Shown piece by piece: positions 1 to 62,858 of a stretch of 64,000 nucleotides of DNA (its first letter is position 1; every line of letters begins with the position of its first letter). Under the pieces are notes generated by a model, which did not search any database, was not told where the DNA came from, and worked only from the letters and a program-made list of their open reading frames with translations. The position numbers and the translations under genes were made by a program. Source of the DNA: a phage; sequence record PQ374922.1; one strand, given 5' to 3'.

Positions 1-666
1 AAACATTATCACCTGGAAAAGACTGAAATATGTGAAACTCAGGGTATCCAGTTGATCCACATCTGGGAAGATGAATGGGTTGAGAAACAGGAAGTGGTAA
101 AATCTCTTCTGAAAGCTAAACTTGGAATTAAAACGCCTGCGTCATATGCTCGCCAACACAAAGTCGTTTGGGGAAATATAAGCGGCTTGAGGGAGTTTTT
201 AGACAACCACCACATACAAGGTTCCGTTTCTTCCACCCACCATTTGTCGTTAATTGACAAGAGTGGGGCCATACAAGCCGTGATGCTATTCACTAAAAGG
301 AAAGATGGCCTGGAATTAGTCAGATTTGCCTCTAATGATTGCCACGGGGCATTCAGTAAACTTCTTTCACACTTCAGAAGAAAATTTACCGGCACCAAAA
401 TCTATTCCTTTGGGGATAGGTGTGTTGTAAGCAGGTTGTCCAACATTTACCTATCCCACGGATTCGTAGAAGAGGAAGTACAGAAGCCAGACTACAAATA
501 TCACAAGCCTGGCACATTTATGCGTGAGCACAAATTCGGTTTCAGAAAAGGTTCATTTGCTCGCATGGGGTATGACGTAGAAGGCAAAACAGAAAGCCAA
601 TTAGCAACCGAAGCCGGGTTGGTCAGGATTTGGAATTGTGGACTGATCAAATATGTCTTGAACTAA
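1..666 (+). CDS. hypothetical protein, 5'-truncated by window edge (C-terminal >=221 aa)
   Basis: Frame 1 is open from nt 1 to stop at 664-666; AT-richer codon usage than neighbouring genes; no catalytic motif recognised. Confidence 0.45.
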   Translation, partial: KHYHLEKTEICETQGIQLIHIWEDEWVEKQEVVKSLLKAKLGIKTPASYARQHKVVWGNISGLREFLDNHHIQGSVSSTHHLSLIDKSGAIQAVMLFTKRKDGLELVRFASNDCHGAFSKLLSHFRRKFTGTKIYSFGDRCVVSRLSNIYLSHGFVEEEVQKPDYKYHKPGTFMREHKFGFRKGSFARMGYDVEGKTESQLATEAGLVRIWNCGLIKYVLN

Positions 667-3108: not shown

Positions 3109-3875
3109 TCCCTAAATACCCCCATCATCCATGGGGGTATTTTCTTATGAACACACAGATCTATGACGCCCTATCACAGGGCAACGCCTTTACCAATCCT
3201 CTCCCGTCCCTCAGCAGCGCCTCACAGGGGTTAATCACCAGTGGTAAGGCGACTACAGCGTCACTGGCTAACACCGGAAATGCGCAGATTCAGGAAGCGC
3301 TGACGGCAGGTGGGTTGACTACAGCCAAACTCAACGAATCTACAGCAATGTTCAACTCAGCCAACAACAGCATCACTACTTTGAACAACTATGGCGACCA
3401 GTCAGTGAACGAGGCATATTCCCGCATCGGTACATCTGTGTCGTATAAGTCCGCCCTGAAGTCTATAGGTCGAGAACCGAACAACTGTGATCTGATCAAT
3501 AATGCATTTGGGGTTATTCAGAACCTCGGCAAACAGTGGATCAACACCATGCAAAGTGTTCTCACAACTATCACAAACAAGATGAATGAGCTGGCTGAGT
3601 TGGTAGCTCAGGGTGTCAGTGCTGGTCTTGATGCTATTCGGGCACTGGCTGCTGAAGTTACTCAAGCCATCGACACTGCTGTCGCATCAGTAGCCTCTAT
3701 TGCTCAGGACATCACGAACGGTATTGCAGCAGAGTTAGCCCATATCCAAGACATGGTTGGTAAGTGTCTTAACTTCTCTTTTGCCAACGTGATCTCAGAG
3801 TGGGCGAAAGATATCTGCGCCGGAGGTGTCATCAACAGCATTGGTTCCGATAATCTGAAGAACGCGCTGAAGTAA
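3105..3875 (+). CDS. hypothetical protein, Ala/Ser/Thr-rich (256 aa)
   Basis: Long ORF, alternative start at 3147; no motif recognised. Confidence 0.5.
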   Translation: MIPKYPHHPWGYFLMNTQIYDALSQGNAFTNPLPSLSSASQGLITSGKATTASLANTGNAQIQEALTAGGLTTAKLNESTAMFNSANNSITTLNNYGDQSVNEAYSRIGTSVSYKSALKSIGREPNNCDLINNAFGVIQNLGKQWINTMQSVLTTITNKMNELAELVAQGVSAGLDAIRALAAEVTQAIDTAVASVASIAQDITNGIAAELAHIQDMVGKCLNFSFANVISEWAKDICAGGVINSIGSDNLKNALK

Positions 3876-8577: not shown

Positions 8578-9246
8578 ATGCAAGAGATCACTCTCTCCGA
8601 ACGTACACTTCAGTTGCTGGCCAACTTTGAGACCATCAACCCATCTATCGTTCTGACACCGGGCAAGATGCTGCGCAGTATTAATGATTCTTCTACTGTG
8701 ATCGCCGTGGCGCAGATCGAAGAAGACTTCCCGTTTGAGTTCCCGATTCTGGACCTGACCAAACTTCTGGCCATCCAGCGCCTACCTTCCTTCAAAGGTG
8801 CCAAAGCCGAATTCCATCAGGACTACATCCTGTTGAAAGGTGAAAGTTCTCAGCTGCAATTCTGGCGTTCTGCTAAAGAACTCACGGTTGTCCCGGCTGA
8901 TACTATCGAACTGCCGTCTGTTGACTTTGAAGCGATCATCACTCCAGAGAAGATGAAAGAACTGACCCGCGCCTGTTCTACCCTCGGACATAAGACTGTG
9001 CGCCTGGTTGCTCAGGGTGGCAAAACTCGCCTGGTTGCAACCACCACTACCCTGGACAACTCCAACAACTACACTGTTGAGCTGGGTGAAACCGCGCTGC
9101 CGGACTTCGTAATGCCGCTGGATGTTGCCAACCTGAAAATGATCGAAGGCAACTACACTCTGCGTGCCTGTGCTGATCTACAGATGGTGAACTTCCAATC
9201 ATCCGACGCGACGATCAATTACTTCGTCGGCGCACAGATTGAGTAA
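8578..9246 (+). CDS. sliding clamp, T4 gp45-like
   Basis: 222 aa, E. coli-optimal codon usage, immediately upstream of clamp-loader ATPase; order 45-44-62-regA as in T4. Confidence 0.8.
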   Translation: MQEITLSERTLQLLANFETINPSIVLTPGKMLRSINDSSTVIAVAQIEEDFPFEFPILDLTKLLAIQRLPSFKGAKAEFHQDYILLKGESSQLQFWRSAKELTVVPADTIELPSVDFEAIITPEKMKELTRACSTLGHKTVRLVAQGGKTRLVATTTTLDNSNNYTVELGETALPDFVMPLDVANLKMIEGNYTLRACADLQMVNFQSSDATINYFVGAQIE

Positions 9247-10321: not shown

Positions 10322-10744
10322 ATGGCCGCCCTTGGATTGTTCGATTACCTGGCTGCTCTGAACAGCAGCAAAGAAAACCTTTTGCGGTCTGATGACCCAG
10401 AAGTGTTGAAAGGATTCGACCCGTTTATGACGCGGCGTGGTTTAGCTCAGAGCAAAGACACTCTAGTGGCTGCGCAACAGATGAATAAGCTACATGCTAT
10501 CACTCCATGGATGCAATGGTCATATGCCTTTTACACCATTCCGGCTCGGAAACGCTACGACAAATGGTCTAAGAAAGGTCCGATTGATCCTGACGTGAAG
10601 TTACTCTCAGAGTACTTCTACATCAGCATGGAGAAGGCATCGGAGTACGTCCGTTTCTTGCCGAAGGAAGTCCTGGCCGAGATACGCGAGAAGATGAGAC
10701 GCACTGAGCTGAACGCCAAAGCGAAACCGCGCAAGGCTAAGTAG
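10322..10744 (+). CDS. clamp loader small subunit, gp62-like (by synteny)
   Basis: ATG overlapping gp44 stop region; position between gp44 and regA. Confidence 0.55.
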   Translation: MAALGLFDYLAALNSSKENLLRSDDPEVLKGFDPFMTRRGLAQSKDTLVAAQQMNKLHAITPWMQWSYAFYTIPARKRYDKWSKKGPIDPDVKLLSEYFYISMEKASEYVRFLPKEVLAEIREKMRRTELNAKAKPRKAK

Positions 10745-12149: not shown

Positions 12150-12177
12150 AACAGAGGCTATAATGGCCTCTGTTTTC
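12150..12177 (+). terminator. terminator hairpin with TATAAT in loop
   Basis: cagaggc-TATAATg-gcctctg followed by ttttcg. Confidence 0.55.
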
Positions 12178-17917: not shown

Positions 17918-19578
17918 GCATGCGCCACTTAGACCCAATCCATGCGATCGACTTCTACAAATCGGGGCACATCTATCAGTTCCCTGAAGGCAGTGAGCTG
18001 GTGTTCTCCAACGGAACTCCGCGCTCTAACAAACTGTTCAACTCTCACCTGCCGAAGAACGGCGTGGTGGTCTGGGGCATCCAGGGCTTCATGACCTGGT
18101 TCCACGAACTGTTTGACGAAGCATTCTTCCAGCGCCCGAAGGCCAAGGTGCTGAAGAAGTATGCCCGTCGCATGAACAAAGTCCTGGGTCCAGGCCGCGT
18201 CGGCACAGAGCATATTGAAGCCCTGCATGACCTCGGCTACCTGCCTATCGAAGTCCGTGCGCTGCCTGAAGGCACCATGTGTCCGTATGGCGTTCCGGTG
18301 TATGTGATGTTCAATACCCTGCCGGAGTTCTACTGGCTGACCAACTATCTGGAGACTGTGTTCAGCTCTGAGATCTGGAAGCCGATGACGAACGCCACCA
18401 TAGCTCTGCATTACAAGGCACTGATGGTGAAAGCTGCCCTCGCTACGGGAGTATCACCAGACCATTGGTTCATCGACTACCAAGGTCACGACTTCTCCTT
18501 CCGTGGTATGAGCGGGTGGCATGACGCCGCGTCTTCCGGTTCCGGTCATCTGGTGTTCTTCAAAGGCACCGACACCAACCCTGCCCTGGACTTCGTAGAA
18601 GAGTATTATGGCGCAGACATCGACGAAGACTATGTCGTTGCTGGGTCGGTTGCCGCAACGGAACATGCGGTGATGTGTATGGGCACGAAGGATGGTGAAT
18701 TCGAAACCTTCCGCCGCCTGGTGCAGGACGTGTATCCTGATGGCATCGTCAGCATCGTGTCTGATGCGTGGGATTACTGGCAGGTCATCGACGACTATCT
18801 GCCTCGCCTGAAAGACATTATCATGGCGCGCAATGGTAAAGTCGTGATCCGCCCCGACTCGGGCGACCCTGTACACATCGTCGGCGGCTACCGCATCGAG
18901 GGGTTCAAAGACCGCGCTACGCTGAACATCAGCGGCGTGTCTAGCAGCACCGAAGTTATCCACATCGAAGAGACGAACACCTATCACCTGATCACAGGCG
19001 AAGGCACGATCAACTCTCTGATGGCAGATGACCGTAATATCATCAGCCGTTCAGAAGCGGTCGGCTCTATCCAGCGCCTGTGGGAGATCTTTGGTGGCAC
19101 CCAGACTGAAACTGGGCACTTCCTGTTGGATGAGCACATCGGCCTGATCTACGGTGATTCTATCACCCTGGCGCGTGAAGACCAGATCTTTAGCCGTCTG
19201 GCTGACCGGAACTTCGCTTCCATCAACGTGGTGTTCGGTATCGGTTCCTACACCTACCAGATGAACACCCGTGACAGTACTGGCACAGCAGTGAAAGCCA
19301 CGGCTGGTAAAGTGAACGGTGAATTCCGTGAGATCTTCAAAGAGCCGAAGACCGATAAAGGCGGGACTAAAAAGTCTGCGCGTGGTTTCCTTAAAGTCAT
19401 TAAAGACCCTCAGGGTAAACTAGTGTTGGTTGACGGTATCACTTTTGATCAGGTGCAAGACGCCGACAACCAGCACCAGCTGGTGTATCGTGATGGCGAG
19501 TTCTTCAATACTCAAACACTGGAAGATGCGCGTGTTCGTGCTGCTCCTCTGGTGACGGAACTGGCATCACAAATCTGA
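17914..19578 (+). CDS. nicotinamide phosphoribosyltransferase family (NadV/NAMPT or Namat-like)
   Basis: 554-aa ORF translationally coupled to Prs-like gene (ATGA overlap); recognised as NAMPT-type phosphoribosyltransferase by overall sequence pattern. Confidence 0.8.
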   Translation: MSMRHLDPIHAIDFYKSGHIYQFPEGSELVFSNGTPRSNKLFNSHLPKNGVVVWGIQGFMTWFHELFDEAFFQRPKAKVLKKYARRMNKVLGPGRVGTEHIEALHDLGYLPIEVRALPEGTMCPYGVPVYVMFNTLPEFYWLTNYLETVFSSEIWKPMTNATIALHYKALMVKAALATGVSPDHWFIDYQGHDFSFRGMSGWHDAASSGSGHLVFFKGTDTNPALDFVEEYYGADIDEDYVVAGSVAATEHAVMCMGTKDGEFETFRRLVQDVYPDGIVSIVSDAWDYWQVIDDYLPRLKDIIMARNGKVVIRPDSGDPVHIVGGYRIEGFKDRATLNISGVSSSTEVIHIEETNTYHLITGEGTINSLMADDRNIISRSEAVGSIQRLWEIFGGTQTETGHFLLDEHIGLIYGDSITLAREDQIFSRLADRNFASINVVFGIGSYTYQMNTRDSTGTAVKATAGKVNGEFREIFKEPKTDKGGTKKSARGFLKVIKDPQGKLVLVDGITFDQVQDADNQHQLVYRDGEFFNTQTLEDARVRAAPLVTELASQI

Positions 19579-23064: not shown

Positions 23065-23079
23065 TTCTATAACTTTGGG

Positions 23080-23107
23080 CGGGGTATGATTACCCCGTCT
23101 ATTTGAA
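23080..23107 (+). terminator. hairpin plus T-rich tract
   Basis: cggggta-tgat-taccccg then tctatttg. Confidence 0.45.
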
Positions 23108-26422: not shown

Positions 26423-26478
26423 TCAATAACCTCGGGCGGCTTATCATAAAGCTGCCCTTTCATTTGAGTGACTATATC

Positions 26479-30648: not shown

Positions 30649-30693
30649 AGTTTCATTCCTCTTTCTATAAAACCAGTTTGGGATATTTATATC

Positions 30694-31232: not shown

Positions 31233-32024
31233 ATGGGAATGAACTTCGTGGACAGAGGGGAGAATGTCGTCAAATATTTCACGGACGAAGACAACGAGCG
31301 TGTCATTAGTATCCTTCGTGATTGGATCCCTGCTCGCAAGAAAGCACTTGCTGAGGGCACCAGGCTTCCAAAGATCCCCAACTATGTTGCTCTGCAGGTC
31401 CAGCGCATCATCACCAAGATGAGTACCCGCTACAACTATCGCGATTATCCCTTCCGTGAAGACATGGTCTCTGAAGCAATAGTCAACATCTTGCGCTACC
31501 TCCACACATTTGACGTCGAACACATTGGAAAGAAAGGGAAGATCAACTTCTTCTCTTGGGTGACCATGTGTGCTGATCGATCATTCGCTCGTAAACTGAA
31601 TATCGAAGAAGAGCACACGTACATTAAATTGCGCTCATTTGAAGAGGCGGGTGGGTTCGCAGGCCTGGCAGACGATCCCGACTTCCAACAAGAGGTCTTT
31701 GTTGATGCTACAGGAATTGGCATGGACTTCCGTGAACGTATCGGCAACTTTGAGAACAAAAAGGACGCTCAAAGGCAGAAGGAGCGAGAGAAGGTGGAGG
31801 CAGCTCGTCTCGCAGAATCGAATAAAAAGATTGCGAAAGGCATACTTCAATACATGGCGCAGGCTAAGAATACGGTAACAGCGCAGGCCGAAGACAATTC
31901 AGATCAAGACTTCGGCAAAACCCAATTCAATCTGGAAGATGATATCTGTGCGATGGAACCAGATTGGGAAGCCCTCAAACAAAGATTAGAAGAACGGGAG
32001 AAAAAGAACAATGGCGATTGCTAA
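31233..32024 (+). CDS. late-transcription sigma factor, T4 gp55-like
   Basis: Pattern similarity to T4 gp55 as recalled (ISILRDWIP, central helical region); precedes gp47/gp46 as in T4. Confidence 0.65.
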   Translation: MGMNFVDRGENVVKYFTDEDNERVISILRDWIPARKKALAEGTRLPKIPNYVALQVQRIITKMSTRYNYRDYPFREDMVSEAIVNILRYLHTFDVEHIGKKGKINFFSWVTMCADRSFARKLNIEEEHTYIKLRSFEEAGGFAGLADDPDFQQEVFVDATGIGMDFRERIGNFENKKDAQRQKEREKVEAARLAESNKKIAKGILQYMAQAKNTVTAQAEDNSDQDFGKTQFNLEDDICAMEPDWEALKQRLEEREKKNNGDC

Positions 32025-35631: not shown

Positions 35632-35957
35632 AAGTCGTCCACTTCAAGAAGGAGCCATACGACGTCTACATCGGTCGTCCCGGTAAATGGGGGAACCCAT
35701 TTGAGGTCAAAGACCATGGACGAGGCGTCTGTATCGAACTGTTTGAGGACGACCTGTATGTGCGCCTGATTGAAGGGGATATCACTGAGGATGAACTCCT
35801 TGATCTTGACGGGAAGGTATTGGGGTGCTGGTGTAAGCCGCGCCCCTGCCACGGAGATGTTTACGTCAAAGTCGTCGGGCGTATTAAACTATTCCGCAAG
35901 CTGGGTAAATCCTTTACTGAACATCTGAGACAAACGTATGTCAGAAAACAAAGATGA
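35628..35957 (+). CDS. DUF4326-like protein
   Basis: Motifs YIGRPGKWGNPF and CWCKPRPCHGD as I recall for DUF4326. Confidence 0.5.
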   Translation: MKVVHFKKEPYDVYIGRPGKWGNPFEVKDHGRGVCIELFEDDLYVRLIEGDITEDELLDLDGKVLGCWCKPRPCHGDVYVKVVGRIKLFRKLGKSFTEHLRQTYVRKQR

Positions 35958-36222
35958 AATTCAGGAATCCTGTGACATTGCTGTGGAGATATGGAATCGC
36001 AGGAATCCTCATTACCAAGTGACCGTCACTCCGAATCGTTATCTTGAGCAGGGTGGTCTGATTGTGGTTGATGCTGTACTCGCTTTCAACAAGTACCAAG
36101 ATATGCAGATCCTGGACGGCAACTTTACCGTCGCGACCAAGACGGCATGGGATGACCCTCTACAGTTCGTCTACGGCTGGCTGGAGTGCATCGAGGAATC
36201 CTACCACCTCATCTACGAATGA
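35938..36222 (+). CDS. hypothetical protein (94 aa)
   Basis: Followed by terminator hairpin. Confidence 0.5.
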   Translation: MSENKDEIQESCDIAVEIWNRRNPHYQVTVTPNRYLEQGGLIVVDAVLAFNKYQDMQILDGNFTVATKTAWDDPLQFVYGWLECIEESYHLIYE

Positions 36223-36227
36223 GGCTG

Positions 36228-36261
36228 AAGGGCACTAAATACCACGTGCCCTTTATCTTTT
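36228..36261 (+). terminator. terminator hairpin with late-promoter-like TAAATAC in loop
   Basis: aagggcac-TAAATACCAC-gtgccctt followed by tatctttt. Confidence 0.6.
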
Positions 36262-36318
36262 AACCCCTGTCAGGAGGCTCAATCGAGCTGCAAGTCGACA
36301 AACATAAGGAACGCCATC

Positions 36319-36933
36319 ATGACGATGACAACGTTGAAGGTCATGGCCTTGTCCGTGACCTTTACCATTGCCAGCGGGAATGTGCACGCTTCCCAAAGTA
36401 CCACCCAATGTGTTTATAATTTCTCCGAGCAACAACTTAATACGATGGCAACCGCCTATCACGTGGGCAAGACACAAGATCTTGGCTACACTCTGGCCGC
36501 CATATCTTGGCGTGAGAGCCGCGCTGGCGAAGATGTAGTGTCAATGCGATACGGCCTCAAGGCGGCCAACATGGGAGCCTTTCAGAACAAGGTGAAGACA
36601 GTTGGTGATCGCGAAGGTTGTAAGAATCGCAAGTGCTATGCCAATGTCGCTATAAAGTTGCTGACCGACCAAGAATATGCCGCGCAAGCCGCCCTCGATG
36701 AGATGCAGTTCTGGCTGACCTATCACAATCAGAATATCCGCAAATCCCTCTCCTCTTACAATGCTGGCTTCGCCCGTAATCCTGCATCGAACGCTTATGC
36801 TGCCGACGTCGTGAAGAAAGCTAAATATCTTCAGAAATGTGTGTCCTTCGAAGGCCGGACCATCTCCGAGGTAGATCCTCAGGTGATCGCCATGAACAAG
36901 CACACAATAGAGAAACTGAAGAGGACAAGATAA
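36319..36933 (+). CDS. secreted lytic transglycosylase (SLT domain) with signal peptide
   Basis: Signal peptide MTMTTLKVMALSVTFTIASGNVHA; SLT-like motif AISWRESRAG...MGAFQ. Confidence 0.5.
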   Translation: MTMTTLKVMALSVTFTIASGNVHASQSTTQCVYNFSEQQLNTMATAYHVGKTQDLGYTLAAISWRESRAGEDVVSMRYGLKAANMGAFQNKVKTVGDREGCKNRKCYANVAIKLLTDQEYAAQAALDEMQFWLTYHNQNIRKSLSSYNAGFARNPASNAYAADVVKKAKYLQKCVSFEGRTISEVDPQVIAMNKHTIEKLKRTR

Positions 36934-38014: not shown

Positions 38015-38089
38015 GATAAGGGGGCTGACGCTCCCTTTTGGTTTCGCTAATTAGAAGAAACCGCCGTTAATTCAGTCAGGAGATATAAA

Positions 38090-41082: not shown

Positions 41083-41388
41083 ATGAAACCGTTTATCGAA
41101 TATTTTAAAGAACAAGCCGCTAAACCTCAGACCCATGCTGGTGTCCAGGGTAAGACCGTATCCATCACCAAGCAAGCTGACGGCACTCAGTGGTGTTCCG
41201 GCGCTACCGTGACCCAGATCACTCCTGACAATCAGGCGGATATCTACAACCTGGAGTTAACCAACGGCAACACCATCAAGGTGAAGCTGACCCCAGACCA
41301 GACTCACGGTATCTCCCAAGGTCAGGAAGTCGTTGCTGTCCATGACGGTTTCGAATTCTTCTTTGGCAAGTCTGTCGACAAAGACTAA
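41083..41388 (+). CDS. hypothetical protein (101 aa)
   Basis: GAGGAGAG RBS. Confidence 0.5.
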   Translation: MKPFIEYFKEQAAKPQTHAGVQGKTVSITKQADGTQWCSGATVTQITPDNQADIYNLELTNGNTIKVKLTPDQTHGISQGQEVVAVHDGFEFFFGKSVDKD

Positions 41389-41428
41389 GTGAAACCATCA
41401 AGATGACCCTGGTCAAGCCGTGATTACA

Positions 41429-41460
41429 ATCCCCCTAAATACAGGGGGATTTCTTTTTCT
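41429..41460 (+). terminator. terminator hairpin with TAAATACA loop
   Basis: atccccc-TAAATACA-gggggat followed by ttctttttct. Confidence 0.65.
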
Positions 41461-41472
41461 GAGGACAACATC

Positions 41473-41826
41473 ATGGTCAATGCGAGTATTTTCATCAACC
41501 GTGGACTGCTTGCTATAGCCCACTCTCATGCCTTACACTTCGTTACAACGTCCTATGCCAAGCACAAGGCACTCGGGGAGTTCTACGGGGATCTAGAGGA
41601 CTTGCTGGACACGTTTACCGAAGCATACATCGGTGCGGGTGGTCAGTATGTTCCATCATTCGAGAATATCAAATTGTACAACCCAGACCCTATCTCCTAT
41701 ATTAACAGTGTGGTGATAGACGTCGATGGCATCTACAAGCAGTGTGACTCCCACCTTCAGAGCACTCTTGACGATATCAAGACACTGTGCTATCAGACGA
41801 TCTACAAACTGAAGCAGCTGTCGTAA
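41473..41826 (+). CDS. hypothetical protein (117 aa)
   Basis: Downstream of hairpin carrying TAAATACA loop. Confidence 0.5.
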   Translation: MVNASIFINRGLLAIAHSHALHFVTTSYAKHKALGEFYGDLEDLLDTFTEAYIGAGGQYVPSFENIKLYNPDPISYINSVVIDVDGIYKQCDSHLQSTLDDIKTLCYQTIYKLKQLS

Positions 41827-45095: not shown

Positions 45096-45244
45096 TCCAG
45101 ACGTATAACATAGGGGAGGCAACTCCCCCTATCAGGTCTTGGGAGGAGATCACAGTCATTCAATCCTCTTTAGGCGCTCTCTGGGTTGCTGACACATTCA
45201 GAACAAAGTCTCCCCCAGCTCCTCGAGTAGTTCACTTTCACTTT

Positions 45245-45275
45245 AAATACCTCTGCATTCATTGTGGAGGTATTT
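45245..45275 (+). promoter_or_regulatory. hairpin pairing TAAATACCTC with the endolysin Shine-Dalgarno region
   Basis: aaatacctc (45245-45253) is reverse complement of gaggtattt (45267-45275), 5 nt before the endolysin ATG. Confidence 0.45.
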
Positions 45276-45279
45276 TCTT

Positions 45280-46074: not shown

Positions 46075-46080
46075 CTCAAA

Positions 46081-46102
46081 GGCCGGAAACGGCCTTTTCT
46101 TT
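46081..46102 (+). terminator. rho-independent terminator after endolysin
   Basis: ggccg-gaaa-cggcc followed by ttttcttt. Confidence 0.7.
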
Positions 46103-46176
46103 ATCCAATCCTCAGGTATGCTGGGGTTGTCACCTTAATTAGAGGTGATGACACCCTGAGATATAGGAAGGTTCCC

Positions 46177-52166: not shown

Positions 52167-53777
52167 TTACTCTTTGGTGCCGAAATTACCACCATTGTCT
52201 TTTAATTCTGCCTTGATGTCAATCTCACCCGGACCCGTAGGGGATGCAGGGGTTGCACCTGACAGAGAAGAAGCACGACCAGCACCTTCGGCATATATGA
52301 TGTTACCATTGATCGTCTGAGCGACAGTCAGTTTGTCAGCGATGATCTCAGTCGTTAGAATCTTAGGAACCTTCAATGTCCCACCGACCTCCAGAGTCTC
52401 GCAGATAATGCGCAGAATATTCTGCGCTTGCATTTCCGCTAGGTCACTGAATTTCATCAGCGCTGTGCCCGCAACCACATTTGAGTAGTTGTTGGAATGC
52501 AAATGATAGACCTCACCTGTCTTGCGCTGGACTTCAGTTCCTTTGACCGTCAGGTTGTGGTCCCCGCCGACATAATAACGCTTGTTGAACATCGTCAGGT
52601 CATAGTGGTCTTTGACGGACTTGTTGACCACATCACCATCCGGCAACATTTGCTTGTAAGACCCAGACTTATGCATCCAATGAAGACGTTCACCACCAGG
52701 GGTGTCATCCACTTCCATAATATGCCCAGCTCGGGACACCATGACGTTATTGTACGGGTATTTAGATCCACCCGCAGCCGGAACCATGGTTTCTCCAGTG
52801 TTGTCAATATCCTGTACTCGCCCAGTAGGAGCCGGAGTCGGTTGTTCCTTTGGAGTACGATCTGGGATAGGTTCTGACCATTTACCATTCTGCTGCGCAG
52901 GCGCGGCTGTGGCTGTGTTAGCAGGACCAGGCCAACGATATCCCAAGACCGAAGAACGTCTGAAACGACTGACCTTCACTGAATCGGATTGGTTGCCACC
53001 AATACACCAGACATAGTTTGCATCGAACTTCTGCACAAACGCTACGTGTCCAAATGTAGGGTTGTTACCACGCCGGAAGACTACGATAGCGCCATATTGT
53101 GGTGCTGACAGTGGAGTGCCCCATGTAAGGTAAGATCGGGCAAGAGCGGAGCGTGTAGACGTGTATCCAGCCTGTATCATAACCCAACCCACGAACGCCG
53201 CACACCACGACACTTCATCTTCAGAAGCACCAAGGGAGGTTGTCTTGTGATATTCTATAATGCGCGGGTTGTTGTTGAACTTTCCGGCATACTCCTTGAT
53301 ACCTAATTCGCCACGAGCGATTGTCATCCACTTCTCTGGATCATACCCACCAACAGGTGGTTGTGGATCTGGTTGTGGTTCGTCTTCTTGTTTCACAGGA
53401 ACGTCAGTGACGGCGTTGTACGCCTGACGTTCCACAGATTGAACGACCTGCCCGAGAGCCAGTGGGTTTGTGTCGGCACCATCAGTAGGACTTGAACCAG
53501 TCCAAGTCCAGGTGATGCGTAAATTCTGGTATGCTTCGTCAAGGGCGAACCCCATAACCTCAGTGCCAGGAATGATACCCGTTGGAGACCAACCTAAACC
53601 AGCAGAGGAGGCGTTAGAAGCAGGCATCAGTACCTTCGCCCATGGGAGTTTGTCCGTAGGCAGGAGGACGGGATCGTCGGTGTGTACGCCATATATGCGA
53701 ACAGCAACTCGCCCATTTTGGTCTGGATCGTTGACATCTTCAACGGTGCCGTAAAACCATCTCATATTGTCTAACAT
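52167..53777 (-). CDS. baseplate central hub/spike protein, gp5-like, with CHAP peptidase domain
   Basis: N-terminus MRWFYGTVEDVNDP like T4 gp5 OB domain; Cys/His CHAP signature SWCAAFVGW...FGHVAFV; CATAAATA late-promoter-like element upstream. Confidence 0.6.
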   Translation of the reverse strand: MLDNMRWFYGTVEDVNDPDQNGRVAVRIYGVHTDDPVLLPTDKLPWAKVLMPASNASSAGLGWSPTGIIPGTEVMGFALDEAYQNLRITWTWTGSSPTDGADTNPLALGQVVQSVERQAYNAVTDVPVKQEDEPQPDPQPPVGGYDPEKWMTIARGELGIKEYAGKFNNNPRIIEYHKTTSLGASEDEVSWCAAFVGWVMIQAGYTSTRSALARSYLTWGTPLSAPQYGAIVVFRRGNNPTFGHVAFVQKFDANYVWCIGGNQSDSVKVSRFRRSSVLGYRWPGPANTATAAPAQQNGKWSEPIPDRTPKEQPTPAPTGRVQDIDNTGETMVPAAGGSKYPYNNVMVSRAGHIMEVDDTPGGERLHWMHKSGSYKQMLPDGDVVNKSVKDHYDLTMFNKRYYVGGDHNLTVKGTEVQRKTGEVYHLHSNNYSNVVAGTALMKFSDLAEMQAQNILRIICETLEVGGTLKVPKILTTEIIADKLTVAQTINGNIIYAEGAGRASSLSGATPASPTGPGEIDIKAELKDNGGNFGTKE

Positions 53778-53811: not shown

Positions 53812-53819
53812 TATTTATG
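53812..53819 (-). promoter_or_regulatory. late-promoter-like CATAAATA upstream of gp5-like gene
   Basis: 7/8 match to TATAAATA on minus strand, 35-42 nt upstream of ATG at 53777. Confidence 0.4.
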
Positions 53820-56139: not shown

Positions 56140-56190
56140 CCCGGCATAAATAGCCCATACACCAATGAAACTTCGTTATGGGCTATTTAC

Positions 56191-57092: not shown

Positions 57093-57324
57093 TTATCAAT
57101 GCAAGGGCTGTGGTAACGCGATGACACTGCGTAAATCTATTGCAGATCGCCATGAGCCTGAATCCAACCCCTGCACTGAGTGCGGAGGGGAGATTAAAAT
57201 GGTCGTGGGTGCTCCCAAGATTGTCTCTGGGGTGAAGGGACCACAATCAGCTCCAGACGGCTTCAAGGACGTCTTGCGTACGATAAAGAAGGGTTCGGGT
57301 AAGGGGAACACAATCGATGTCTGA
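57079..57324 (+). CDS. FmdB-like zinc-ribbon protein
   Basis: MPLYDYQCKGCG ... CTECGG. Confidence 0.55.
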   Translation: MPLYDYQCKGCGNAMTLRKSIADRHEPESNPCTECGGEIKMVVGAPKIVSGVKGPQSAPDGFKDVLRTIKKGSGKGNTIDV

Positions 57325-57562
57325 CGAAAAACAGCCAGCGCTTGTGATGACACCAGAATTATTTTCTGAAATCGTCCTACTACGCGCCGCCCAAACCAAG
57401 GATAGTATCCTTGAGACTCTGGCAGCTGTCTGTGAAGAGAACGACATAGACGAGACCAAAGTCAAAAAGATGATTACAGCACCATTGTTGTCACGACTGA
57501 CAGCTGAGTGCTCCGATGCGCGCCTGATAAAAGACGCGCTAAAGTCCAAGAAATTAGTGTAG
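57317..57562 (+). CDS. hypothetical protein (81 aa)
   Basis: ORF overlapping neighbours by a few nt. Confidence 0.5.
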   Translation: MSDEKQPALVMTPELFSEIVLLRAAQTKDSILETLAAVCEENDIDETKVKKMITAPLLSRLTAECSDARLIKDALKSKKLV

Positions 57563-57821: not shown

Positions 57822-57848
57822 TCGGGGTATAATTACCCCGCTTTGTAG
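57822..57848 (+). terminator. hairpin with TATAAT spanning the loop, upstream of SSB gene
   Basis: cggggta-taat-taccccg then ctttgtag. Confidence 0.5.
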
Positions 57849-58936: not shown

Positions 58937-58965
58937 AAGCCATCTTCGGATGGCTTTTTATTTTC
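58937..58965 (+). terminator. rho-independent terminator between convergent genes (possibly bidirectional)
   Basis: aagccatc-ttcg-gatggctt followed by tttattttcc; A-run on the other side. Confidence 0.7.
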
Positions 58966-59902
58966 CCATCACGTCTTGCAATATTCCCAACAGGCTTGTC
59001 TTCTCCGCCGCCGTCAGGTTATCGTTACCCATGATGTCACGAGAGATACCTACCGAGATGCGCTCGAAGTCCTGTATGCTTATCCCAGCCAGGTTGTTTA
59101 CAAGTTGGTCAAGCTGTTTGTAAGCCAGGAGAGCCTCTCCTGTGAAGTTCCCTTCTTTCAACTTGCGATAAAGCTGTCCAGCTTTTGAGGCCGCAGTTTC
59201 CCAGTCACCACTGGTAAGAGCGTCAGCAATGCCGAGAGGAAGAAAATCGCTGGAAAGGCTGCGTGTTTCATATTCTGTCTCCGAAAGCACTTTGTTGTAA
59301 GAGAAAGAAATGTTGTACTGGTTGAACTGGTCTGTGGCACCTTTATCTAGCTCAATAGAACTGAAATTTATTGGGTGAGCCTCGACGATGTAGACGCGGT
59401 GGACCACTTGATCTTCGGTGTCAAGCTGTTCAATGCATATGTCAGTCACGAAGTCTTCGTAATATCCCATTTTGGTGGTGTGTGGATCAAAGATCAGACT
59501 CTTCCACTTGTCCATCACAGACTTCTCATAATAGTCATTGGCTAATAAGAATGACAAGTCGAGGTCGACGTTGGACTTGTTGTTCGGCATCTTGATGTGA
59601 TTACCGTTGTTTGTCATTGGAGTGGTGTCGATACCAACCCCTGGCAATGAGGCAACCATACACATCATCTGAAGGGAACGGGACGTCTGGTTTGTCCCTC
59701 CAAAGAAAGCGTTTACAATACGGGCTGACTGCTTAAACAAGTCACCAAAAGATGAATTGGTTCTGTACGCCTTTCCGTCATTAGCCAGAGTGGCATTGGA
59801 GTCAAAGATCCCTGGTGGTAGAGGGATGGTCACTCTGAAGCGGTTCTTGCGCGACAAGCCCCGCTGTAATATCTGTGTGATAAAATTGCGATAGTCTTCC
59901 AC
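58958..59902 (-). CDS. putative virion structural protein (late gene)
   Basis: GTG start with GGAG RBS; exact TATAAATA 35-42 nt upstream on minus strand. Confidence 0.55.
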   Translation of the reverse strand: MEDYRNFITQILQRGLSRKNRFRVTIPLPPGIFDSNATLANDGKAYRTNSSFGDLFKQSARIVNAFFGGTNQTSRSLQMMCMVASLPGVGIDTTPMTNNGNHIKMPNNKSNVDLDLSFLLANDYYEKSVMDKWKSLIFDPHTTKMGYYEDFVTDICIEQLDTEDQVVHRVYIVEAHPINFSSIELDKGATDQFNQYNISFSYNKVLSETEYETRSLSSDFLPLGIADALTSGDWETAASKAGQLYRKLKEGNFTGEALLAYKQLDQLVNNLAGISIQDFERISVGISRDIMGNDNLTAAEKTSLLGILQDVMGK

Positions 59903-59936
59903 GGTGAGGACTCCACTTAAATAAAATAACTGTTAT

Positions 59937-59944
59937 TATTTATA
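59937..59944 (-). promoter_or_regulatory. T4-type late promoter core TATAAATA
   Basis: Exact TATAAATA on minus strand 35-42 nt upstream of structural-gene GTG start at 59902; phage encodes gp55-like sigma. Confidence 0.5.
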
Positions 59945-62824: not shown

Positions 62825-62858
62825 AGGGGCTGCTATAATAGCAGCTCCTTTTGTTTAT
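62825..62858 (+). terminator. terminator hairpin with TATAAT in loop
   Basis: ggggctgcta-taat-agcagctcc followed by ttttgtttatt. Confidence 0.55.

Follow-up and report, generated by a model that had tools for sequence, protein, structure and literature searches.

TAAATAC motifs in terminator-like hairpins of an Agtrevirus-like phage: candidate composite terminator/late-promoter modules

The 64,000-nucleotide stretch of phage DNA analysed here (sequence record PQ374922.1; "the window" below) contains two hairpins, at 36228-36253 and 41428-41451, each with TAAATAC at its apex and a T-rich run directly behind it. What is a sequence that resembles a T4 late promoter doing in the loop of a hairpin that resembles a terminator? 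The 9 kb surrounding these elements are 99.3% identical to Escherichia phage YX22 and, over the same 9 kb, 92-97% identical to Agtrevirus phages such as Ag3, SKML-39 and vB_CECAV_050; judged by sequence, the source phage is Agtrevirus-like, a member of the Ackermannviridae (the former 'ViI-like' or Viunalikevirus group). For genome-wide statistics we used the whole YX22 genome (154,890 bp, 186 coding sequences) as a near-identical stand-in.

Two hairpins and their neighbouring genes

The two hairpins, called hairpin 1 and hairpin 2 here, and the genes on either side of them are as follows.

35938-36222, + strand: gene ended by hairpin 1; phrog_4165, unknown function
36228-36253, + strand: hairpin 1, predicted terminator stem-loop for the upstream gene; 8-bp GC-rich stem, 10-nucleotide (nt) loop
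36236-36242, + strand: late-promoter-type motif (C)TAAATAC in the loop of hairpin 1; predicted transcription start (+1) at about 36247, in the 3' arm
36254-36261, + strand: T-rich tail TATCTTTT of hairpin 1
36319-36933, + strand: gene after hairpin 1; signal-peptide protein with a weak SLT transglycosylase match
41083-41388, + strand: gene before hairpin 2; truncated phrog_4048 member
41428-41451, + strand: hairpin 2, predicted terminator stem-loop; 9-bp stem AATCCCCCT/AGGGGGATT with TAAATAC at the apex
41436-41442, + strand: late-promoter-type motif (C)TAAATAC at the apex of hairpin 2, 31 nt before ATG 41473; predicted +1 at about 41447, in the 3' arm
41452-41459, + strand: T-tract TCTTTTTC of hairpin 2
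41473-41826, + strand: gene after hairpin 2; DUF5856, homologue of T4 rI.-1/MobD.6

A preliminary description of this DNA, made from its letters, had reported both hairpins with their T-tracts, and both are borne out. Hairpin 1 consists of the arms aagggcac (36228-36235) and gtgccctt (36246-53) around the loop TAAATACCAC (36236-45), and hairpin 2 of (a)atccccc (41428/9-41435) and gggggat(t) (41444-41451) around TAAATACA; in the window both stems are made of perfect Watson-Crick pairs. Folded as RNA, hairpin 1 reaches -15.0 kcal/mol (z = -3.95) and hairpin 2 reaches -14.7 kcal/mol (z = -3.75), far more stable than shuffled sequences (for each, 0/200 shuffles were equally stable), and hairpin 2 took first rank in a terminator scan of 30-50 kb.

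The two hairpins have the anatomy of intrinsic (rho-independent) terminators, that is, a GC-rich stem-loop and an immediate T-tract, co-oriented with a gene and placed just after its end; from this form we infer that termination occurs at them. The TGA at 36220-22 precedes hairpin 1 by 5 nt. The gene before hairpin 2 encodes 102 amino acids here as against 189 in relatives, and a remnant of its old 3' end is left: the ancestral stop, TGA at 41421-23, lies 5 nt before the hairpin, and the upstream gene of the relatives ends there. Neither hairpin has a T-tract on its opposite strand, so the elements are unidirectional. Their loops are large. By stringent criteria YX22 has 26 terminator-like hairpins, and in 22 of them the loop measures 3-5 nt. 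The focal loops there (7 and 10 nt) are outliers: the first is the sole one of 7 nt in that set, the second one of a pair with 10 nt.

The Shine-Dalgarno (SD) sequences of the genes that follow, AAGGAA at about 36306-11 and GAGGA at 41460-64, lie outside the stems. The DUF5856 gene behind hairpin 2 is about 40% identical to T4 rI.-1/MobD.6 (NC_000866 58819-59205), which in T4 follows the lysis-inhibition gene rI and belongs to a cluster with an intergenic TATAAATA ahead of it. Homologues of DUF5856 occur in more than 1,400 phage records; elsewhere they are annotated 'starvation-inducible transcriptional regulator', and in Dickeya phage XF4 'unknown structural protein'. From hairpin 1 to the SLT-like gene runs a 65-nt leader (36254-36318) that is unusually conserved, with 94% identity to Kuttervirus-like relatives whose coding DNA has only 78%. 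We considered that this leader might hide an early promoter of the form TTCAAT-N14-TATAAT or a structured RNA, and rejected both, as it has no match to that promoter and no significant fold (z = +0.9). Rfam gave no match in the whole window at gathering thresholds, or in 36150-36400 at E <= 1, the leader included, so that neither the hairpins nor the conserved leader belong to a known RNA family. The 9-mer GTCGACAAA occurs both in the leader (36294-36302) and at 41374-41382, 46 nt before hairpin 2, possibly by chance.

TAAATAC as a late-promoter-type motif

Both focal loops contain CTAAATAC. The preliminary description had read TAAATAC as a late-promoter-type element, recognised by a sigma factor of the T4 gp55 type, and had named motif enrichment over the whole genome as a check; on this point its reading stands. 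The window has 10 copies of TAAATAC where 3.6 are expected, a number reached by 0/100 shuffles. In an unbiased k-mer test of the regions from -50 to -12 of every YX22 gene, with copies counted on both strands, TAAATA was the top hexamer, 26 of its 58 copies falling there (22.7-fold, p = 2.5e-26); the corresponding fractions are 13/18 for CTAAATA and 12/21 for TAAATAC. Those 26 copies sit 23-42 nt before a co-oriented start codon, and in the window 10-11 of 22 copies have that spacing, against 0.38 expected (p ~1e-12). An alternative form, CTAATTA, has 5 of its 10 YX22 copies upstream of genes and precedes the portal and tail tube genes. A sigma70 scan of 30-50 kb, by comparison, found 20 sites against 19.6 in shuffles, no excess.

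The genes behind the motif sites are in many cases virion or lysis genes. They include three tail-spike-region genes, the tail sheath gene, a scaffold-region gene and a neck-region gene, as well as genes for a gp5-like hub, a tail-tube-like protein, a gp2-like DNA end protector, a virion structural protein and the endolysin. Homologues of the three T4 late transcription factors are encoded in the window:

31233-32024, + strand: gp55-type late sigma factor homologue; phrog_234, E = 3e-52
57317-57562, + strand: gp33-type late transcription co-activator homologue; phrog_254, E = 3e-20
8578-9246, + strand: gp45-type sliding clamp homologue; phrog_223, E = 1e-64

Alignment of the 26 sites gives the consensus aCTAAATAcCyc..A, whose core is invariant by construction since the sites were selected on TAAATA; further upstream the information content is below 0.4 bit at every position, and there is no conserved -35. 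The consensus matches a published signature of the family, CTAAATAcCcc, cited in PMC7283392 and listed in the literature consulted only as a 'unique regulatory motif'; the motif is thus already in the literature. Kutter 2011 states that the late-promoter sequence of the ViI-like phages had not been identified (PMC3184105), and the Ag3 paper searched only with T4's TATAAATA (PMC3121705). In the sources consulted we found no description of the motif's placement in hairpin loops or arms. Reportedly, CTAAATAcCcc was first given as the Viunalikevirus signature by Adriaenssens et al. (2012, Arch Virol).

Taken together, the enrichment, the spacing, the kinds of genes downstream, the match to the signature and the homologues of gp55, gp33 and gp45 make it well supported, at the level of sequence, that TAAATAC behaves as the gp55-type late-promoter element of the Ackermannviridae; it is from these features that we infer promoter activity, start sites and late timing in what follows.

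The preliminary description had also pointed, correctly, to two sites like TATAAATA upstream of minus-strand structural genes (the first two lines below). These and two further sites are:

59937-59944, - strand: TATAAATA before a tail-tube-like gene (58958-59902, GTG 59902), spacing 34 nt
53812-53819, - strand: cATAAATA before a gp5-like baseplate hub/tail lysozyme gene (52167-53777), spacing 34 nt
30684-30691, - strand: TATAAATA before a virion structural protein gene (start 30648), spacing 35 nt
59918-23, + strand: TAAATA before the gp2-like gene, spacing 32 nt

The gp2-like and tail-tube-like genes are divergent and have a common intergenic region of 53 nt, in which TAAATA on the + strand and TATAAATA on the - strand form the arms of one imperfect inverted repeat (59918-59944), predicted to be late-type promoters placed back to back; in YX22 the sites at 18355/18377 make up a similar pair. 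Before regA (10738-10743) the window has GGCTAAGTAG where YX22 has GGCTAAATAG, a single-base difference that removes the motif here.

Conservation, hairpin placement and the proposed module

Why would a late promoter lie in the loop of a terminator? We judge it probable, on balance, that the two focal elements are composite terminator/late-promoter modules, and the sequence suggests that they most likely act as compact stop-and-restart signals. As RNA, the GC-rich stem and the U-tract would end transcripts that come in from the gene before; as DNA, the loop would carry a gp55-type late-promoter element, (a/c)CTAAATAC. In T4, TATAAATA occupies -13 to -6, and +1 lies about 6 nt after its last A. 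With this geometry a late start would fall inside the 3' arm, at about 36247 and 41447, and late RNAs, made without the 5' arm, would form no terminator and would continue into the gene that follows. An AT-rich -10 element could not be placed in a GC-rich stem, and the loop would be the most upstream place for a promoter whose own transcripts still escape the terminator. Placing the promoter in the loop would thus save space and insulate neighbouring transcription units.

Does the motif depend on the hairpin? Hairpin 2, with its motif and T-tract, hardly varies in 19 of 20 Ackermannviridae loci; as this is true also where a wholly different gene precedes it, it travels with the downstream gene. 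The relative L003 has no stem and its flanks are unrelated, yet CACTAAATAC still stands 30 nt before the same ATG. The upstream neighbour in L003 is a divergently transcribed gene of 201 amino acids, which would need no terminator there, and we attribute the loss of the stem to this. The motif is therefore maintained independently of the hairpin. In six relatives among the loci L002-L020 unrelated genes abut hairpin 2, and homology begins exactly at its 5' edge; this mosaic junction resembles shuffling mediated by the early promoter/stem-loop cassettes (PeSLs) considered below, and is equally explained by the hairpin belonging to the downstream module.

The stem of hairpin 1 is kept in 18 relatives, where its 5' arm shows A->G substitutions that produce G·T(U) wobbles. 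The loop takes the forms TAAATAC/TCAC, TAAATACTAC, TAAATATCAA, TAAATATCTC and TAATTATCTG in the same relatives, with TAAWTA retained in all of them (TAAWTAY if the seventh base is counted, the three bases behind it drifting) and one A/T change giving the alternative form of the motif. One position varies among the first six as against all four at the 3' end (hypergeometric p = 0.024, a value that rests on few independent lineages). We considered the drift of this loop to TAATTAT as a loss of the motif and dropped the idea, given the enrichment of CTAATTA before portal and tail tube genes and the exchange of TTAATTA and TTAAATA before the PhoH-like gene described below.

The motif also lies in other hairpins. 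For each of the 34 promoter-like CTAAWTA sites in YX22 we shuffled the flanks, and scored a site as enclosed in a loop where the enclosing stem had at least 6 bp. Five sites are so enclosed, against 0.9 expected with shuffled flanks (P = 0.001), and in eight the motif makes up the 5' arm of a stem, 8 bp or longer, that stops shortly before a start codon, against 0.05 expected. Hairpins thus take in 13 of the 34 sites, over a third, and 29 of the 34 lie outside loops. Where the motif forms the 5' arm, the G-run of the Shine-Dalgarno sequence is in the 3' arm. If T4 geometry is assumed, a start about 6 nt after TAAATA would fall 3' of the 5' arm in all of these hairpins, of either class, and cutting the sequence 5' of the predicted +1 abolishes the fold (for example -15.8 to -1.9, -16.1 to -1.1 and -21.0 to -0.9 kcal/mol). 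Hairpins in the window that carry the motif, or a variant of it, other than the two focal ones are:

45244-45279, + strand: TAAATAC as the 5' arm of a 13-bp hairpin; the 3' arm GGAGGTATTT carries the SD of the endolysin gene (ATG 45280)
3113-3146, + strand: CTAAATACCCCCAT as the 5' arm of a hairpin; the 3' arm ATGGGGGTATTT abuts ATG 3147; z = -4.5
56147-56189, + strand: TAAATAGCCCATA as the 5' arm of a hairpin that ends 1 nt before the ATG (56191) of a RuvC-like resolvase gene
38039-38063, + strand: weak 7-bp hairpin with CTAATTA (38047-53) in its loop, directly after a terminator-like hairpin at 38018-38037 and 36 nt before ATG 38090
46123-46156, + strand: 14-bp hairpin (z = -4.0) with the variant TTAATTA (46135-41) at its apex, 35 nt before a PhoH-like gene

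The endolysin hairpin is kept across genera (loci L046-L067), with compensatory stem changes, down to 60% identity over the N-terminal 60 residues of the endolysin; its stem holds two G·T(U) wobbles. At the resolvase gene, TAAATAGCCCATA pairs with TATGGGCTATTTA (-19 kcal/mol, z = -4.7), in parallel with T4 gene 49 (endonuclease VII), and as the repeat is perfect, TAAATAG also stands on the opposite strand (56184-89). The hairpin at 46123-46156 sits just after a separate tetraloop terminator (46078-46097). The TTAATTA before the PhoH-like gene is kept across genera, and is TTAAATA in the distant relative L066; the stem is only partly conserved.

It is possible, of course, that the focal hairpins are plain intrinsic terminators whose AT-rich loops resemble the late motif by chance, and that the genes behind them are expressed by read-through or from other promoters. 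Their terminator anatomy is complete, Kuttervirus-like relatives have TAATTAT in the loop of hairpin 1, whose motif is far from the ATG, and the downstream genes are not obviously late. We hold this to be unlikely, however. The loops of 7-10 nt are out of line with the usual 3-5 nt, five loop-enclosed sites are several times the number expected, L003 retains the motif at the same spacing where there is no terminator, and the drift preserves TAAWTA, with CTAATTA itself an enriched form.

Another possibility is that UAAAUAC in the loop works in the RNA, where a phage RNA-binding protein might bind it, say, or an RNase cut it. Any transcript that reads through would display the loop, and proteins of the RegA and RegB-like kinds are annotated in this phage group. 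Most copies of the motif, however, would lie upstream of the transcript they precede or at its extreme 5' end, a fixed distance from the start codon with no set structural context fits a promoter, and in L003 the motif stands in unstructured sequence. Among the explanations considered, we rate this one the most improbable.

Hairpin apexes in the window are occupied by early-type promoters too. At six places a promoter of the form TTCAAT-N12-14-TATAAT/TATTAT/TATGAT has its -10 box at the apex of a strong hairpin, in several cases followed by a T-tract:

943-969: early-type apex hairpin
12150-12174: early-type apex hairpin
23077-23099: early-type apex hairpin
26434-26457: early-type apex hairpin
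57823-57840: early-type apex hairpin
62826-62848: early-type apex hairpin

One example reads GGGGCTGC-TATAAT-AGCAGCTCC-TTTTGTTT. These hairpins look like composite cassettes of the PeSL type; TTCAAT-N14-TATAAT is the other published signature of the family. These early-type hairpins are probably what the preliminary description had in mind as a first class of hairpins, beside the one with TAAATAC.

Does the apex itself matter to the promoter? The preliminary description had proposed that a -10 element placed in a loop is kept single-stranded when the hairpin extrudes from DNA. On such a reading a hairpin or cruciform would offer the loop to the gp55-RNA polymerase and aid opening, as in the promoters of phage N4 virion RNA polymerase. 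The recurrence of -10-type elements of both promoter classes at apexes, the hairpin at 46123-46156 with an apex motif and no T-tract, and the perfect Watson-Crick stems of the window would all fit. The wider evidence does not: most of the motif sites lie outside loops, eight being base-paired within a 5' arm; L003 keeps the motif with no stem; and the G·T wobbles of the relatives pair in + strand RNA, while in the other arm of a cruciform they would be A·C mismatches. Short arms with loops of 6-10 nt are expected to extrude poorly. The T-tracts directly after the stems and the nearness of the stop codons point to RNA terminators, and with the wobbles, L003 and the many sites outside loops they favour an RNA terminator overlapping a DNA promoter. 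The preliminary interpretation is thus upheld as to the late-promoter-type motif and gives way as to the single-stranded loop, a mechanism to which we would give very little weight. Much the same low credence goes to the broader idea that the apex placement of both kinds of -10 element, late CTAAATAC and early TATAAT, has a function in the DNA itself, whether by transient extrusion or because the non-template strand is unpaired during upstream termination. If true, it would couple termination to the next initiation, with late initiation that is clamp-independent or supercoil-sensitive.

The wobbles bear also on a reading of the inverted repeats as operators, at which a dimeric DNA-binding protein would occlude the late promoter until a set time. 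A palindrome over a -10 element is classic operator geometry, the repeat at 46123-46156 has no terminator tail, and FmdB-like and other small regulators are encoded nearby. Yet the stems of the different hairpins share no half-site sequence, the substitutions of G·U type fit RNA folding better than protein recognition, and both focal hairpins are followed by T-tracts. An operator role therefore seems to us more improbable still than DNA extrusion.

Several observations weigh against the composite terminator/late-promoter module as well. The 36236 motif is 77 nt from its ATG, beyond the 23-42 nt of the other sites, and for this reason the 36236 site would be the weaker promoter candidate; the 41436 site, with a spacing in the middle of that range, would be the stronger of the two. 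The near-invariance of hairpin 2 yields no independent loop-versus-stem signal except in L003. The genes after both focal hairpins, for the SLT-like secreted protein and DUF5856, are not canonical late genes. The hairpin at 46123-46156 is unexplained by terminator logic, as it has no T-tract. Over all upstream and intergenic regions, those with the motif and those without fold much alike (median z -1.69 vs -1.07; p = 0.11-0.4), a comparison in which the regions without the motif are full of terminators and early-promoter hairpins, and we ascribe the lack of significance to that. Finally, a search of the literature for start sites, transcriptomes, timing or 5'/3' ends in Ackermannviridae or Kuttervirus found nothing.

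Comparison with known systems

How do these elements compare with what is known in other phages? One known relation of the motif is the T4 late promoter TATAAATA, served by gp55 together with gp33 and gp45. Like the motif described here, it is a single AT-rich -10-type element with no conserved -35; the two have the core TAAATA in common, and stand before virion and lysis genes, and homologues of the three T4 factors are encoded in the window. The Ackermannviridae consensus differs from TATAAATA in having C for A (cTAAATA), in tolerating TAATTA and in its extension by cCyc.

A promoter element displayed on an extruded DNA hairpin, as the preliminary description envisaged, has its likeness in phage N4, whose virion RNA polymerase uses single-stranded hairpin promoters and needs the hairpin for recognition. 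The present motif differs in that most of its copies have no hairpin, and that loss of the hairpin leaves it in place.

The PeSLs, which together with the e/49 hairpins of T4 come closest among the systems known, offer a nearer model for the arrangement as a whole. These are early promoter/stem-loop terminator cassettes of phages RB49, phi1, T4/PST and KVP40/nt-1, and both their promoter and their terminator activities have been demonstrated experimentally (PMC2839356; PMC4122927). The focal elements resemble them in that an intergenic terminator stem-loop is fused to the promoter of the next gene, and in the G·T pairs of the stems. The difference is in the promoter: PeSLs have an early promoter of the sigma70 type, whereas the focal loops have the late-type CTAAATAC, with no TATAAT and no TTCAAT or TTGACA at a fitting spacing. 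By this analogy the focal elements would be best described as the late-promoter counterpart of the PeSL design.

The 5'-arm hairpins have a different counterpart. It is found at the T4 genes e, 49, soc and I-TevI, where an RNA hairpin masks the ribosome-binding site and its 5' strand also encodes a late promoter (PMC3014915). There, as is predicted here, transcripts from upstream hold the whole hairpin, and late transcripts start within it and are made without the 5' strand. Masking of the SD or start codon by the 3' arm, a feature of e and 49, is found in the hairpins that begin at 45244, 3113 and 56147 and is absent from the focal hairpins. The endolysin (45244-45279) and the RuvC-like resolvase (56147-56189) have the full arrangement of the T4 e/49 type, and these genes are the functional analogues of T4 e and 49. 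The focal hairpins differ from that type in having the SD outside and the motif in the loop, so that what late transcripts would escape is termination, not translational masking.

The Ackermannviridae, or ViI-like phages, are used widely in biocontrol and therapy, and their late promoters are not known to have been mapped experimentally. The present analysis provides a candidate set of late promoters that is genome-wide and constrained by position, CTAA(A/T)TA at 23-42 nt before start codons. Where such a site lies in a hairpin, a late transcript would be free of the terminator, or of the stem that masks the SD. Exact positions at which transcripts should start and stop are predicted as well. 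Such a set should be useful for annotation and for the engineering of timing-specific expression in these phages. What is added is not a new principle: the PeSL and e/49-type paradigms of T4-like phages are extended to another family and to promoters of the late class. The elements are an ordinary, though neat, variant of those known in T4-like phages.

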